Assembly: GCA_964558595.1 (NCBI GenBank)
Contig: CAZLER010000008.1
Location: 830-64,829, forward strand
DNA: 64,000 nucleotides
From: an uncultured Thermotogae bacterium
GTDB lineage: Bacteria; Bipolaricaulota; Bipolaricaulia; UBA7950; UBA9294
Reading direction: 5' to 3'
Numbering within the stretch: the first letter of the stretch is position 1; the number at the start of each line of letters is the position of its first letter. Below, one piece after another: positions 1,633 through 12,552 of the stretch. Below the pieces are notes generated by a model. That model had not been told where the DNA came from. It saw nothing but the letters and a program-made list of their open reading frames with translations, and made no database searches. Made by a program: the position numbers and the translations under genes.

Positions 1633-3114
1633 CTACGACCCGCCCGCGAGTTCCGCCGTCAGACCGACCCGGTCGTTGAATCCCTCGATCAGCCGATCGA
1701 TGTCGGGAACGAGATCGTGGATCCGGTCCCAATAGGCGGGGAAGTCGACCCATTGGGCATCGAGTTCCTCGGCGGACCGCCCCATCTGCTCGATCCACGT
1801 GTAGTACTTCAGGTTATGGATCCGCCTTCGTTCCCGATGGCCGAGTTCGAGCATGACGTCGGTCTTCATCCCCATCAGGTGGGCGTGGTAATCGACGGCC
1901 GCGTCGGTCTCGGTGTACTCGCCGCGCGCTTGACGGAGCTCGCGCAGGCGGCTCCCGTAGAGCTCCATGGAGTCGGTGAGGACGGTGAGGACGATGTCCT
2001 CGCTGGATAGCTCGTAGTACTTGGCGAACTTGATCGCCGACAGGAGGTTGGCGATCCCCGAGATGCCGAGAAGGTCGAGGTGCTCGACGAGTTGGGAGGG
2101 GACGCCTTGCCGGTCGAGGAAGCGGCGACCGGGATCCTCGTTGAAGAGGCGTACGAGCGACATGGTGTCTTCGTCGTCGATGGCGATCACCATGTCGGTG
2201 TTGCGCACATTGTGGATCCATGGGACGTGTTTGTCCCCGATCCCCTCGATCCGATGCCCACCGAACCCGTTCTCCAGAAGCGTGGGACACTGCAACGCCT
2301 CCGACACCGCCAGGCGGCTACGGGGGAACCGCTCCTTCAGGTAGTCCCCGCATCCCATCGTGCCCGAGGATCCCGAGGTGAGCACCACGCCGGCGTACTC
2401 CCCACTCCCGAGTTCCGCATCCAGCACCTCTTCCATGGCGTGTCCGGTCACGTCGTAGTGCCACAGGTGGTTGCCGAACTCGTCGAACTGGTTGAAAATC
2501 ATGACGTTGTCGCGGGTCTCCTCGAGCTCGATGCACTTCTGAAAGATCTCCCATACGTTCGACTCGCAGCCAGGGGTGGCGATCACCTCACCGGCGACCT
2601 TCTCGAGCCACTCGAACCGCTCGCGGGACATCTCCTCGGGCAGGATGGCGATCGACTCGCACGCCAGCAGGTTGGCGTCGTAGGCTCCGCCGCGGCAGTA
2701 GTTGCCCGTGGACGGCCACACCGCCTTGTGGTACGTCGGATCGAACTGGCCCGTCACCAGCCGGGGAACCAGACATCCGAACGTGGCGCCCACCTTGTGC
2801 GCTCCGGTCGGAAACCACTTGCCGACCAACGCGAGGATCCTCGCGGGTACCCCGGTCAGCTCGGTCGGGAACTCGACGTAGTTGACCCCGTCGAAGCCTC
2901 CGCCGTGCGGGGTTGGCTCGTTCTTCCAGGTGATGCGAAATAGGTTGAGTGGGTGCAGATCCCAGAGACCGATGTCGCTCAGCTTGTCGATGATCGCGGC
3001 CGGGATCAGGGACGGATCCCGCATCTGCGCGAACGTGGGGATGATGATGCCGCGCTCGTGCGCTCGGCGAGCCGTTCGTTCCAGGCGCTGCTCGTTGCGG
3101 GTCAGGTCGATCAT
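1633..3114 (-). CDS. Fold-type II PLP-dependent enzyme, TrpB-like (lysine motif PTGAHKVGATF), 493 aa, function unknown
   Basis: ORF 1633..3762 minus trimmed to Met at 3114 (MIDLTRNEQRLERTARRAHERGIIIPTF...). AGGAGG SD lies 6-11 nt upstream (revcomp of 3115-3125). TGAHK motif resembles the TrpB HTGAHKIN PLP-lysine motif, and the glycine-rich loop GSSGTMGCG resembles the PLP phosphate-binding loop. Divergent from the hydantoinase gene. Confidence 0.6.
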   Translation of the reverse strand: MIDLTRNEQRLERTARRAHERGIIIPTFAQMRDPSLIPAAIIDKLSDIGLWDLHPLNLFRITWKNEPTPHGGGFDGVNYVEFPTELTGVPARILALVGKWFPTGAHKVGATFGCLVPRLVTGQFDPTYHKAVWPSTGNYCRGGAYDANLLACESIAILPEEMSRERFEWLEKVAGEVIATPGCESNVWEIFQKCIELEETRDNVMIFNQFDEFGNHLWHYDVTGHAMEEVLDAELGSGEYAGVVLTSGSSGTMGCGDYLKERFPRSRLAVSEALQCPTLLENGFGGHRIEGIGDKHVPWIHNVRNTDMVIAIDDEDTMSLVRLFNEDPGRRFLDRQGVPSQLVEHLDLLGISGIANLLSAIKFAKYYELSSEDIVLTVLTDSMELYGSRLRELRQARGEYTETDAAVDYHAHLMGMKTDVMLELGHRERRRIHNLKYYTWIEQMGRSAEELDAQWVDFPAYWDRIHDLVPDIDRLIEGFNDRVGLTAELAGGS

Positions 3115-3213
3115 CGTGCCTCCTGCATGCAGTGGATTGTCTGGCGGCTCCGGCAATGCTATCATGCTGCTTGGCCGGATTCCAGCAACGCCGTTAGGAA
3201 GGGGGATCCATCG

Positions 3214-10259: not shown

Positions 10260-10260
10260 C

Positions 10261-12552
10261 ATGGGCGATCGGCGGACGACCGTGATTGGCGGGAGCACAC
10301 CCCGGCCGGATGCCGTGGACAAGGTGCGAGGCGTAGCGCGGTTCGCTGACGATCTTGCCTTCCCCGGTATGCTCCACGGCGCGGTCGTCCGTAGCACGTA
10401 CCCACACGCACGGCTGGTCCGCGTCGACACGAAAGACGCGGTGGGCGACCCAGAGGTCGTCTGCGTCGTGTCGCACGAGGATGTGCCCGGGGACAACCTC
10501 GTTCATGTCATCTACGACGACCAGCCGGCCCTGGCGGCGGATGTCGTTCGCTACGTTGGCGAACCGATCGCGTTGGTGGCGGCAACGTCGCGGCGGGCGG
10601 CGAAGCGTGCCGCCGCCTCCATCCGTGTCTCCTACGAGGAGCTGACGGCGGTCACCGATCCGATGGCGGCGTTGGCTCCCGATGCCCCGGCGGTTGTCGC
10701 CGATCCGCTGGCTGCCGAGGGCGGCGGCAACCTGTTCAACGCGATGGTGCTCCGCAAAGGCGATGTCGAACGGGGCTTCGCTGAGGCGGACGTCATCGTC
10801 GAGCAACGGTACGAGACCGGCTACCAGGAGCATGCCTACATCGAGCCGCAGGGCGCGATCGCGGTCCCCGAGGAGCTCGGGTCGGTGGCGGTCTACGCGT
10901 CGATGCAGTGCCCGTTCTATGTGCAGGGAGCGGTGGCCAAGGCGCTCGGCCTCCCCCTGTCCAAGGTGCGCGCGGTGCAGACGGCGACCGGCGGAGCGTT
11001 CGGTGGCAAGGAAGACGTCCCCTCGCAGATCGGGACGCTGGCCGCGCTGATGGCCGTCAAGGCACAGCGGCCGGTGAAGCTGGTGCTCGATCGAGCGGAA
11101 GACGTCTTGACCACGAGCAAGCGCCATCCGTCGCGAGTTCGCTATCGCAGCGGTGCCAAGGCCGATGGCACGCTGACGGCGATCGAGGTCGAGGTGGTCC
11201 TCGACGCCGGCGCGTACCAGACCCTCTCGTCGGCCGTGCTATGGAGGAGCCTGTGCACGGCGGCGGGCCCGTACCGGATTCCCCATGTCAAGGTCGACGC
11301 GAAATCGGTCGCCACCCACACCGTGCCCAACGGTGCGTTCCGGGGGTTCGGTAGCCCGCAGGTCATCTTCCCACACGAATCGCAGATGGACCTGCTCGCC
11401 GAACGTCTGGGGATCGATCGGGCAGCCATCCGCCGGGTGAATCTATTGCGGCCGGGTGACCGCACGTCCACCAACCAGCGGGTGCGCGACAGCGTCGGGG
11501 TCGGAGAGACCCTCGAGCGGGCGGTCGAGCTCGCCGATTGGGACGAGCGACGGCGTCGGATCGAGCGCGACAACGCCCAGGCCACCGAGCATCGGCGGGG
11601 CGTGGGCCTGGCGTGCGTGCTGTACGGGGTGGGGCTGGGAGGCAAGGCGCCGTTCCTCGACAAGGCCGGAGCCACGATCAAGATCGAAGCCGACGGGTCG
11701 ATCGCCGTCGCGGTGGGCACGGTCGAGATGGGCCAGGGACTGACGACGGTCCTCCTGCAGGTCGCTGCGGAGGCACTGGAGGTGCCCATCGAACGGATCC
11801 ATCTTGCTCCGGTGGACACCAGTCGCGTCCCCGACAGCGGGCCAACGGTGGCATCGCGGGGAACGATGATGAGCGGTCTCGCGGTGCTCGACGCGGCGCG
11901 GAAGCTTCGCGAACGGATCGACGCCGTGGCGACGGAGCTGGGGATTCCGGTCGACGATGTCCCGGCACGGTGGGACGAGATCGCCCACACGTTCTGGATG
12001 CGCAACCTGGATCCCGCGGTCGAGGGGTGGGCGCGGACCGAACCGGTTGGTTGGGACCCGGAGACCGGGCTGGGCGATGCCTATCCGGTGTACGCGTACG
12101 CAACCCACATCGCGGAGGTCGAGGTCGACACCGTGACCGGGGAGACGGAGATCGTCGACTACCTTGCTGTTCACGACTCGGGGCGGATCCTCAACCGATC
12201 GCTGGCGATCGGGCAGGTGGAGGGCGGAACGGCGCAGGGGATCGGTTTTGCGCTGATGGAAGAAATCCCGCGGCGGGACGGCCGACTGATCGTGAATGGG
12301 CTCACCACCTACCGGCTCCCGACGATCCGTGACGTCGCCCCGGCCCCGACGACGGACTTCGTGGAGGCGTGCTTCCCGGCGGGACCGTATGGGGCAAAGG
12401 GGATTGGGGAAGTGCCGCTCATGGCAGCGCATGCAGCGGTGGCCCGGGCTGTCGCCGATGCCGTGGGCACCCCCGTCTTCCGGTATCCGCTCGATCCTCC
12501 GCGGGTGCGCCGGCTGCTCGATCAGGCAACGCCATCGCCGAGCGCCGCGTGA
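10261..12552 (+). CDS. Xanthine dehydrogenase/aldehyde oxidase family molybdopterin-binding subunit
   Basis: 763 aa; a/b-hammerhead plus MoCo-binding domains (…GGAFGGKE…, …RGFG.PQ…, …GQG…TV…). ATG starts 1 nt after the preceding stop. No FAD or 2Fe-2S subunit genes in the window. Confidence 0.85.
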   Translation: MGDRRTTVIGGSTPRPDAVDKVRGVARFADDLAFPGMLHGAVVRSTYPHARLVRVDTKDAVGDPEVVCVVSHEDVPGDNLVHVIYDDQPALAADVVRYVGEPIALVAATSRRAAKRAAASIRVSYEELTAVTDPMAALAPDAPAVVADPLAAEGGGNLFNAMVLRKGDVERGFAEADVIVEQRYETGYQEHAYIEPQGAIAVPEELGSVAVYASMQCPFYVQGAVAKALGLPLSKVRAVQTATGGAFGGKEDVPSQIGTLAALMAVKAQRPVKLVLDRAEDVLTTSKRHPSRVRYRSGAKADGTLTAIEVEVVLDAGAYQTLSSAVLWRSLCTAAGPYRIPHVKVDAKSVATHTVPNGAFRGFGSPQVIFPHESQMDLLAERLGIDRAAIRRVNLLRPGDRTSTNQRVRDSVGVGETLERAVELADWDERRRRIERDNAQATEHRRGVGLACVLYGVGLGGKAPFLDKAGATIKIEADGSIAVAVGTVEMGQGLTTVLLQVAAEALEVPIERIHLAPVDTSRVPDSGPTVASRGTMMSGLAVLDAARKLRERIDAVATELGIPVDDVPARWDEIAHTFWMRNLDPAVEGWARTEPVGWDPETGLGDAYPVYAYATHIAEVEVDTVTGETEIVDYLAVHDSGRILNRSLAIGQVEGGTAQGIGFALMEEIPRRDGRLIVNGLTTYRLPTIRDVAPAPTTDFVEACFPAGPYGAKGIGEVPLMAAHAAVARAVADAVGTPVFRYPLDPPRVRRLLDQATPSPSAA

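Follow-up and report, generated by a model that had tools for sequence, protein, structure and literature searches.

The anaerobic degradation of urate was worked out in 2025, and only for gut bacteria (PMC12507026; bioRxiv 10.1101/2025.04.24.650524). In Escherichia coli it depends on the ygeW-xdhD region, which encodes a reductive pathway for urate and 2,8-dioxopurine (PMC12507026; bioRxiv 10.1101/2025.04.24.650524; commentary PMC12990295). Urate is reduced by XdhD/DOPDH to 2,8-dioxopurine, and the purine ring is dearomatised by YgfK or UacX; the pyrimidine ring is then opened by SsnA and the hydantoin ring by HyuA, which yields 2,3-diureidopropionate. One ureido group of this compound is phosphorolysed by YgeW with inorganic phosphate, leading to ATP by the action of YqeA. 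The second group is hydrolysed by YgeY, and the 2,3-diaminopropionate is finally turned into pyruvate by YgeX. Which of the two ureido groups is removed by YgeW is disputed between the two 2025 studies (PMC12507026; bioRxiv 10.1101/2025.04.24.650524). The present analysis concerns a related gene cluster found at positions 626-12552 of a 64,000-nucleotide stretch of contig CAZLER010000008.1 (assembly GCA_964558595.1), which comes from an uncultured bacterium of the Bipolaricaulota and is called the window in what follows, at its full length of 64 kb.

This region is probably a partial variant of the reductive purine (2,8-dioxopurine) cluster, in which ATP would be formed by way of carbamoyl phosphate, together with a purine hydroxylase subunit. 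An earlier note on the same DNA had suggested a catabolic purine or ureide cluster yielding carbamoyl phosphate and ATP, and had held that neither the substrate nor the pathway could be read from the sequence. The first suggestion is supported by the E. coli homologues and by relatives of the cluster that include SsnA, reductases, xanthine dehydrogenase (XDH), deaminases and transporters. The second is outdated, because the solution of the E. coli pathway allows a substrate to be proposed: 2,3-diureidopropionate, formed from urate or from 2,8-dioxopurine, is the likely one, and all the substrates named below are assigned by analogy with that pathway. A more tentative proposal is that environmental anaerobes use a new end-game of the route, composed of two carbamoyltransferases (2 ATP per purine) and of a new family of pyridoxal-phosphate (PLP) enzymes that replaces YgeX and is often paired with a ThrC-like enzyme. 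The carriers of this end-game would be Bipolaricaulota, Anaerolineae, Halanaerobiales, Atribacterota, Spirochaetota and others, and a co-transcribed NTPase/PNPOx-like protein could be one further component of it.

Gene content and conservation of the cluster

The window has a G+C content of ~66%, and long spurious open reading frames are abundant for this reason. Genes were called by combining profile matches (Pfam, NCBIfam) with third-position GC and ribosome-binding sites. Gene calls and profiles bear out the eight genes, forming one cluster, that the earlier note had listed, and add a ninth at 626-1627 on the minus strand. When the E. coli K-12 ygeW-xdhD proteins were searched by tblastn against the whole window, HyuA, YgeW (twice), YqeA, YgeY and XdhA/XdhD matched in this cluster only, in agreement with the resemblance to the E. 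coli ygeW-ygeX-ygeY-hyuA-yqeA/xdh region that the earlier note had pointed out. The pathway content is nonetheless divided. Homologues of HyuA, YqeA and the XDH molybdopterin (Mo) subunit, two of YgeW and a weak one of YgeY are present; SsnA, YgfK, YgeX, XdhB/C, YgfM and a purine transporter were not found in the window with the E. coli queries, and more closely related queries likewise recovered no SsnA, reductase or XDH partner genes there.

Among the genes that are present, the D-hydantoinase/dihydropyrimidinase (~3232-4614, plus strand; start uncertain, GTG 3232 or ATT 3214) shares 37% identity with E. coli HyuA over 465 aa and belongs with the HyuA-type hydantoinases, as its score for TIGR02033 (410.6 bits) exceeds the cut-off of 393. 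An allantoinase identity was rejected, both allantoinase models being well under their cut-offs (282 vs 358; 284 vs 631). The carbamate kinase (CK) of YqeA/ArcC type (6910-7863, plus strand) is 45% identical to YqeA and falls within the ArcC equivalog (TIGR00746, 429.9 vs 358.25). The M20 hydrolase (5698-6846, plus strand) is of the ArgE/DapE subfamily (TIGR01910, 213 vs a cut-off of 217.6) and lies outside the YgeY family, with 24% identity to E. coli YgeY and scores of 114 and 90 bits for YgeY models whose cut-offs are 321. Between the hydantoinase and M20 genes lies a gene for a GntR/FCD protein (4666-5373, plus strand; Pfam GntR and FCD). It is kept between the PLP and CK genes in Bipolaricaulota loci, and its product is presumed to be a local regulator.

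The XDH-family Mo subunit (10261-12552, plus strand; Ald_Xan_dh_C, MoCoBD_1 and MoCoBD_2) scores 548 for pucD, under the cut-off of 784, and is 32% identical to E. coli XdhA and 28% to XdhD. It carries the motifs FGGKE, FRGFG and GIGE of the canonical purine-hydroxylating XDH type, which we take to hold the equivalents of bovine Glu802, Arg880 and Glu1261. Its Fe-S/FAD partner genes (xdhB/xdhC-like) were not found within the window; related clusters carry either such genes or a Fer2 fusion. In loci of another lineage (L087-L090) an enzyme like that of the window (41% identity) carries fused Fer2 domains and is encoded between YgfK and SsnA, so that environmental clusters use the XDH type of the window. 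The SsnA profile search was dominated by Enterobacteriaceae, and the few other loci inspected showed the linkage of XDH, YgfK and SsnA but did not extend as far as the PLP genes.

The conservation of the neighbourhood was examined around the PLP enzyme, PALP-493, a PALP-fold (fold-type II) protein of 493 aa. A scan with this protein, limited to one genome per species, gave at least 600 matches, and the best 80 (65-81% identity) are the loci considered here. They come from Bipolaricaulota, Anaerolineae and other Chloroflexota, Halanaerobiales, Atribacterota, Spirochaetota, Acidobacteriota, Synergistales, Deltaproteobacteria and Thorarchaeota, and include one from a cultured carrier, Halanaerobium kushneri ATCC 700103 (L054). 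At the higher identities of 74-93%, homologues of PALP-493 and of the first carbamoyltransferase (TC1) belong almost all to metagenome-assembled genomes (MAGs) of Candidatus Bipolaricaulota (Acetothermia). At distances of up to 10 kb from the PLP gene, a ThrC-like PLP enzyme is encoded in 43 of the 80 loci, a carbamoyltransferase in 34, CK in 31, the XDH Mo, Fe-S and FAD subunits in 26, 19 and 18, respectively, HyuA in 20, an M20 hydrolase in 18 and SsnA in 10. At least one purine-pathway marker lies within this distance in 47 of the 54 loci that span 12 kb or more. Other kept neighbours are YgfK-like and luciferase-like (LLM) reductases, amidohydrolases resembling guanine and adenine deaminases, and nucleoside-type transporters (Bmp/ABC). 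Since the same genes recur around the PLP enzyme across these loci and many phyla, their grouping is not due to chance; the neighbourhood, whose lack of conservation would have spoken against a functional cluster, is in fact strongly conserved, and one Bipolaricaulota MAG (L005) is syntenic with the window.

Several relatives also supply what the window lacks. In L002, whose TC1 is 78% identical, the order is an F420-type LLM reductase, SsnA (NF005540, 522 vs 444), a ThrC-like PLP enzyme of 418 aa, PALP-488, CK, TC1 and the second carbamoyltransferase, TC2, so that the PLP-CK-TC1-TC2 module is physically joined to markers of the 2,8-dioxopurine route. SsnA and a dearomatising reductase stand beside the module in L002, L029, L038, L050, L068, L072 and L087. 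Among Anaerolineae and Caldilineae, the surroundings of SsnA include a gene resembling those of F420-dependent NADP oxidoreductases (PF03807) and one for an F420-type LLM reductase (L068, at 15841-16533 and 19663-20658; L077; L082), an arrangement that fits a ring reduction driven by F420.

These linkages bear directly on whether another ureide could be the substrate, such as allantoin or allantoate, by way of a ring opening of allantoinase type and then a phosphorolysis of ureidoglycine-carbamoyltransferase type as in Rubrobacter, or the N-carbamoyl amino acids of pyrimidine or hydantoin breakdown (for instance beta-ureidopropionate), the XDH then feeding or accompanying the route. We regard such a substrate as improbable. 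It would agree with the fact that the sole ring-opening enzyme in the window is a hydantoinase/dihydropyrimidinase that passes the dihydropyrimidinase equivalog cut-off, with the experimentally known phosphorolysis of allantoate by a carbamoyltransferase encoded beside a CK (PMC4016543), and with L047, in which PALP-493 is linked to a UacX/PydA-like DHO_dh-Fer4 reductase, an M20 hydrolase and a TRAP transporter. It is opposed by the low allantoinase scores of the hydantoinase and by the lack of uricase and allantoin genes. In the relatives, moreover, the module is joined to SsnA and to reductases of YgfK or LLM type, and the neighbouring transporters and deaminases are of purine type.

Two carbamoyltransferases

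TC1 (7938-8975) and TC2 (9234-10259), both on the plus strand and both composed of OTCace_N and OTCace domains, are 341-345 aa long and 42% identical to each other; their identities to E. coli YgeW are 33% and 29%, respectively. They had been taken for a tandem of YgeW-type enzymes. The duplication holds, but membership of the YgeW family was rejected for both: against YgeW models with cut-offs of 453 and 500, the scores are 173 and 165 bits for TC1 and 113 and 110 for TC2. YgeW (YTCase), ~396 aa long, has additional helices at both termini, and its 240's loop is extended and its 80's loop short (PMC4581275); TC1 and TC2 have a long 80's loop and are without the extra helices. The best curated model for both is N-acetylornithine carbamoyltransferase (AOTCase), for which TC1 scores 327 and TC2 235 against a cut-off of 288. 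The Protein Data Bank (PDB) entry closest to TC1 is the Xanthomonas AOTCase, and TC2 is about equally close to AOTCase and to the Pyrococcus ornithine carbamoyltransferase (OTCase).

The residues that define AOTCase are Glu92, Asn185 and Lys302 (PMC4581275). In TC1, Asn185 is replaced by Pro and Lys302 by Glu, and Glu92 is ambiguous because of a one-residue gap. Its motif is YMHCLPAD, where AOTCase has SHCLPLR, and YMHCLPAD together with VVYPKxW is common to TC1, E. coli YgeW and the carbamoyltransferases that occur singly in the purine clusters of other phyla. A neighbour-joining tree, built with limited references and without support values, places TC1, those single enzymes and YgeW in one group, with TC2 as a separate, sister clade; AOTCase is basal to both groups, and E. 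coli ArgI and PyrB stand outside all of them. Neither enzyme therefore sits inside the anabolic ornithine or aspartate carbamoyltransferase (ATCase) clades, a placement that would have spoken against the catabolic proposal. An extended 120's loop, a proline-containing loop and the separation from OTCase and ATCase assign TC1 and TC2, as far as sequence can tell, to the knotted superclade of AOTCase, SOTCase and YTCase. The name "YgeW-type" is thus wrong for the family, yet reasonable as a functional analogy for TC1. The N-acetylornithine carbamoyltransferase name systematically given to TC1-type proteins in public records is probably an over-annotation, that is, an annotation error.

That name would be right if the locus were an anabolic arginine module, with TC1 as ArgF', the M20 hydrolase as acetylcitrulline deacetylase (ArgE') and CK acting as carbamoyl-phosphate synthetase. 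TC1 passes the AOTCase equivalog cut-off, has a Xanthomonas AOTCase as its nearest structure and is conserved at 74-93% across the phylum, and the M20 protein is indeed of ArgE/DapE type. Yet arg genes are found neither in the window nor among the kept neighbours of the 80 loci, where the constant partners are CK, TC2, PALP-493, XDH, HyuA and SsnA; two of the three AOTCase-defining residues are unmet in TC1, which has the YMHCLPAD of YgeW and not SHCLPLR; and the M20 gene is dispensable, being absent from L005. The arginine reading was rejected on these grounds of context and residues, and we consider it very improbable.

TC2 retains STRTR, HPCQ and all the other carbamoyl-phosphate-binding motifs, and its clade, which is distributed among Bipolaricaulota and some Chloroflexota loci, is distinguished by PRNW, CMPVD and NMASDI. 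The number of carbamoyltransferases was compared with the presence of YgeY, a locus being counted if 2.5 kb or more separate its carbamoyltransferase block from the end of the contig. A YgeY-type M20 protein is found in 6 of the 7 clusters with a single carbamoyltransferase and in 1 of the 14 with two or more, an anticorrelation with Fisher p = 0.0009, uncorrected for shared ancestry. A second carbamoyltransferase has also been recruited at least twice, as the TC2 clade and, in Anaerolineae, as a protein of the ATCase branch (TIGR00670, 250 vs a cut-off of 237) with an HSLP motif. This motif is the ureidoglycine-carbamoyltransferase signature (PMC4581275). The presence of two ureido groups in 2,3-diureidopropionate, the anticorrelation with YgeY, the double recruitment and the precedents of carbamoyltransferases acting on allantoate and diaminopropionate all point to phosphorolysis of the second ureido group by TC2. 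Such a double phosphorolysis, with up to 2 ATP per purine, has in our judgement a little under an even chance of being correct.

The M20 hydrolase would then be an optional member. Orthologues of it (43% identity) occur at other positions in L004, L023 and L026, and both the syntenic L005 and most two-carbamoyltransferase clusters lack its gene while keeping TC2. This pattern is consistent with a hydrolytic decarbamoylase of N-carbamoyl or N-acyl amino acids, in a YgeY-like role or as a bypass. The same data must be read in the light of an unlikely, more conventional version of the pathway, in which TC1 is the sole catabolic carbamoyltransferase (1 ATP per purine), the M20 protein hydrolyses the second ureido group, TC2 is a redundant isozyme, heterotrimer partner or regulatory paralogue, and PALP-493 is not the diaminopropionate lyase. 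The M20 gene does lie alongside TC2 in the window and in L004, L023 and L026, and L064 and L071 carry YgeY together with two carbamoyltransferases. Against this version, the two-enzyme clusters without M20 still keep TC2, whose carbamoyl-phosphate-binding motifs are all intact, and Anaerolineae acquired a second enzyme independently.

The pyridoxal-phosphate enzyme and the layout of the region

PALP-493 (1633-3114, minus strand; Pfam PALP only) starts with an ATG at 3114, 5' of which lies an AGGAGG ribosome-binding site. It had been described as TrpB-like rather than DpaL-like. No YgeX match was found in the window, as that description implied, but a TrpB identity was rejected, since the nearest models and structures are those of cysteine synthase and cystathionine beta-synthase (CBS). 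The top NCBIfam models of PALP-493 are cysK, CBS and SbnA, all far under their cut-offs (cysK, the best, 82 bits vs 351), and the TrpB model is not among its NCBIfam matches. The nearest PDB relatives are CBS and O-acetylserine sulfhydrylase (OASS), with E ~1e-17. The PLP-lysine motif WFPTGAHKVGAT is kept, and its HK is the sole TrpB-like feature. We take the S-T-G-N segment to be the substrate loop and a Gly/Ser-rich segment to be the phosphate loop, and the C-terminal DS motif to be OASS-like. The protein is extended by ~85 N-terminal and ~160 C-terminal residues. Its AlphaFold2 model was poor (mean pLDDT 67, from a 38-sequence alignment of 75-100% identity); Foldseek gave only generic OASS/CBS matches in the PDB, with TM ~0.4, and the model was not used for function.

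The family is discrete. Its members share 65-86% identity across phyla, full-length relatives extend down to ~32% identity in a search of representatives, and at present they are annotated as "pyridoxal-phosphate dependent enzyme" or "cysteine synthase". E. coli YgeX gives a local match of 46 residues only, with no homology past the shared fold. A counterpart of PALP-493 was not found in the E. coli ygeW-xdhD region, and true YgeX occurs in none of the 80 PALP-493 loci. PALP-493 is placed among the genes of the lower pathway, adjoining HyuA, the carbamoyltransferases and CK more often than XDH, and it is the sole PLP enzyme of the Bipolaricaulota module. It is therefore possible, and we propose it tentatively from this placement, that PALP-493 is the terminal beta-eliminating enzyme in the place of YgeX, converting diaminopropionate or a ureide with a free alpha-amine into pyruvate.

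In other phyla a second candidate stands next to it. A ThrC-like PLP enzyme of ~418 aa, whose gene is absent from the window, adjoins PALP-493 in 43 of the 80 loci (for instance at 11490-12746 in L054, 11508-12776 in L013 and 6245-7501 in L002). It lies inside purine-catabolic clusters and, although it passes the threonine synthase equivalog NF006050 (314 vs a cut-off of 303), probably has another function. The Anaerolineae order is TC-TC-CK, followed further on by the ThrC-like gene, GT2, PALP-493, an unknown gene and HyuA. The GT2 gene, which encodes a glycosyltransferase of family 2, is kept between the ThrC-like and PALP-493 genes in 14 loci (for example, L046 9000-9998, L068 9018-9980 and L042 4352-5338), and the gene between PALP-493 and HyuA encodes a protein of ~160-205 aa with no Pfam match.

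The more conventional version of the pathway introduced above would explain PALP-493 as a supplier of sulfide or selenide, or another accessory, to the Mo-hydroxylase, or as an enzyme acting on a side product. It can draw on the ThrC-like neighbour, which could be the real lyase, on the frequent proximity to XDH genes (26 of the 80 loci) and on L011, L035, L036, L052 and L055, in which no purine genes are near PALP-493. The association with HyuA, carbamoyltransferases and CK, stronger than that with XDH, and the lack of any other PLP enzyme in the Bipolaricaulota module speak against it. As a separate observation, two Candidatus Thorarchaeota (Asgard) MAGs, L055 and L060, encode homologues of PALP-493 that share 67-68% identity with the bacterial proteins. 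These adjoin a PEP-utilising enzyme and a conserved protein of ~1087 aa to which no Pfam family matches, and purine genes are lacking in their vicinity, which suggests horizontal transfer, a second role of the family or mis-binning.

The gene at 626-1627 (minus strand) has its ATG at 1627, 5 nt past the TAG of PALP-493, and is probably co-transcribed with it. The product combines NTPase_1 (THEP1-like) with a PNPOx-like part (Pyrid_ox_like/PNPOx_N), and matches weakly the F420 PPOX-class model TIGR03618 (48.5 bits vs a cut-off of 79) and DUF2478. The fusion gene is kept next to that of the PLP enzyme in L005 and L007, whereas L066 and L079 have NTPase_1 alone at this place. The protein could be an additional component of the cluster, either a deazaflavin or flavin reductase or an accessory protein.

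With 2,3-diureidopropionate as the intermediate, the favoured route would run as follows. The purine would be converted by XDH-type Mo enzymes and reduced, and its pyrimidine ring opened by a reductase and SsnA, both encoded outside the window. The HyuA-like hydantoinase would open ureidomethyl-hydantoin to 2,3-diureidopropionate, from which TC1, as the equivalent of YgeW, would release one ureido group as carbamoyl phosphate. TC2 would phosphorolyse the second group, which in E. coli is hydrolysed by YgeY, with the M20 protein of the window as a hydrolytic alternative. CK would convert each carbamoyl phosphate and ADP into ATP, NH3 and CO2, and PALP-493, in the role of YgeX, would form pyruvate and ammonia from 2,3-diaminopropionate or from a mono-ureido derivative whose alpha-amine is free. 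The GntR/FCD protein would regulate the operon.

Several observations weigh against this route. The pathway is incomplete in the window, because SsnA, a YgfK, UacX or LLM reductase and the Fe-S/FAD subunits of XDH are absent, and the XDH that is present is of the canonical type, without the Glu606 insertion of XdhD. TC1 passes the NCBI cut-off for AOTCase, both carbamoyltransferases remain far under that for YgeW, and the second-substrate residues of TC1 are unlike those of E. coli YgeW (Glu for Gln160, and no equivalent of Asp124). A replacement of YgeY by TC2 is not clean in the window, as the M20 gene co-occurs with TC2, and the Fisher test ignores kinship, many of the two-enzyme loci being Bipolaricaulota. 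Finally, most loci outside Bipolaricaulota pair PALP-493 with the ThrC-like enzyme, which is an alternative candidate for the diaminopropionate lyase.

Regarding the layout of the region, the genes of the main operon are closely spaced on a single strand, the XDH gene starting 2 nt past the TC2 stop codon, and the PALP-493 gene is divergent from them. The divergent intergenic region is 117 bp long (3115-3231) and contains a sigma-70-like consensus match at 3137-3165 (plus strand; TTGTCT, 17 nt, TG-TATCAT), which is weak evidence of a promoter, the scan being at background (2 consensus matches vs 1.6 expected). A perfect palindrome, TCAAGCT-7 nt-AGCTTGA, at 5474-5494, in the 324-bp gap ahead of the M20 gene, is a candidate operator or internal control site. 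Downstream of the XDH stop codon, between convergent genes, a GC-rich hairpin (CGGGAGGGCC-GA-GGCCCTCCCG) at 12564-12585 is the probable end of the operon; it is without a T-run and was for this reason not called by the terminator scan, whose results were at background level. The convergent gene (12627-13304, minus strand) encodes a protein of 225 aa that has a signal-peptide-like N-terminus and matches neither Pfam nor NCBIfam models. The flanks and the remaining window consist of housekeeping genes (RmuC, IspD, PrmC, Fmt, RecG, EF-Ts, S2, DnaB, GcvP, PolA, MutS and others). Among them are two adjoining glycine cleavage P-protein genes of GcvPA/GcvPB type (27513-30928, plus strand), with no obvious link to the cluster. 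Three long open reading frames with coding-like third-position GC and no Pfam match (15736-17340 and 39404-41290, plus strand; 63045-63758, minus strand) may be real genes or artefacts of the high GC content.

Comparison with described systems

The probable pathway of this locus is of the known E. coli kind; what is new is the duplicated carbamoyltransferase and a widespread, uncharacterised PLP family. The cluster shows how the pathway is built in deep-branching uncultured anaerobes of the environment. If both ureido groups were converted into carbamoyl phosphate, the ATP obtained at this stage of purine fermentation would be doubled, and this would matter to energy-limited subsurface organisms such as Bipolaricaulota. 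Two specialised enzymes, each devoted to one ureido group, could also help to settle the dispute about the order of cleavage. The PLP family, present in at least 600 representative genomes, gains a specific and testable context and a culturable carrier.

The cluster resembles that of E. coli in its hydantoinase, CK, carbamoyltransferase, M20 hydrolase and XDH-family Mo enzyme, and in the logic of a substrate-level phosphorylation linked to carbamoyl phosphate. It differs in having two carbamoyltransferases of ~345 aa where E. coli has one YgeW, and in encoding no YgeX but the unrelated, CysK/CBS-like PALP-493, to which other phyla add a ThrC-like PLP enzyme. The M20 protein is of another subfamily and optional, and the XDH is canonical and without its Fe-S/FAD partner. 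SsnA and the reductase are not encoded in the window, relatives use an F420-type LLM reductase, and a GntR regulator takes the place of the sigma-54-dependent YgeV of E. coli.

An F420-type reductase was noted by Li et al. for a variant of the uricolytic cluster in Chloroflexota (PMC12507026), and L002, L068, L077 and L082, with their LLM/F420-type reductase, SsnA, carbamoyltransferase, CK and PLP enzyme, match that variant. Neighbouring genes were scored in that study by Pfam family, PF00185 standing for YgeW and PF00291 for YgeX, so that the second carbamoyltransferase and the two non-YgeX PLP families were not separated; Bipolaricaulota are not mentioned (PMC12507026).

Among carbamoyltransferases that act on diureides, a pseudo-ATCase-related enzyme of Rubrobacter, encoded next to a carbamate kinase, phosphorolyses allantoate, and in Nocardioides a pseudo-ATCase adjoins a YgeW homologue, xdhABC and hyuA (Barba et al., 2013, PMC4016543). 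The Nocardioides cluster is thus a purine cluster with two carbamoyltransferases, like the Anaerolineae loci described here. TC2 departs from the pseudo-ATCase and ureidoglycine carbamoyltransferase (UGTCase) systems in being a paralogue within the knotted AOTCase/YgeW superclade and not a member of the ATCase branch. Its proposed substrate is diureidopropionate, whereas that of the pseudo-ATCase systems is allantoate.

With Xanthomonas ArgF' (PDB 3KZC), TC1 shares the extended 80's and 120's loops and the equivalents of Glu144, Lys252, Arg112 and His148. It differs in Trp77, which is Thr, in HCLPAD as opposed to HCLPLR, and in a catabolic context with no arg genes. In its energetics, the cluster is comparable to the couples of OTCase and CK of the arginine deiminase type, in which ATP is likewise gained from the carbamoyl phosphate of a catabolic carbamoyltransferase. 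As for the substrate proposed for TC2, L-2,3-diaminopropionate and beta-ureidoalanine are a real carbamoyltransferase substrate pair, that of DPTCase in viomycin and zwittermicin biosynthesis (PMC4581275). The step proposed for TC2 would run the reaction of this enzyme backwards; DPTCase, however, is an unknotted biosynthetic enzyme of the OTCase branch with an HDLP motif, whereas TC2 has (H/Q)CMPVD and belongs with the knotted superclade.

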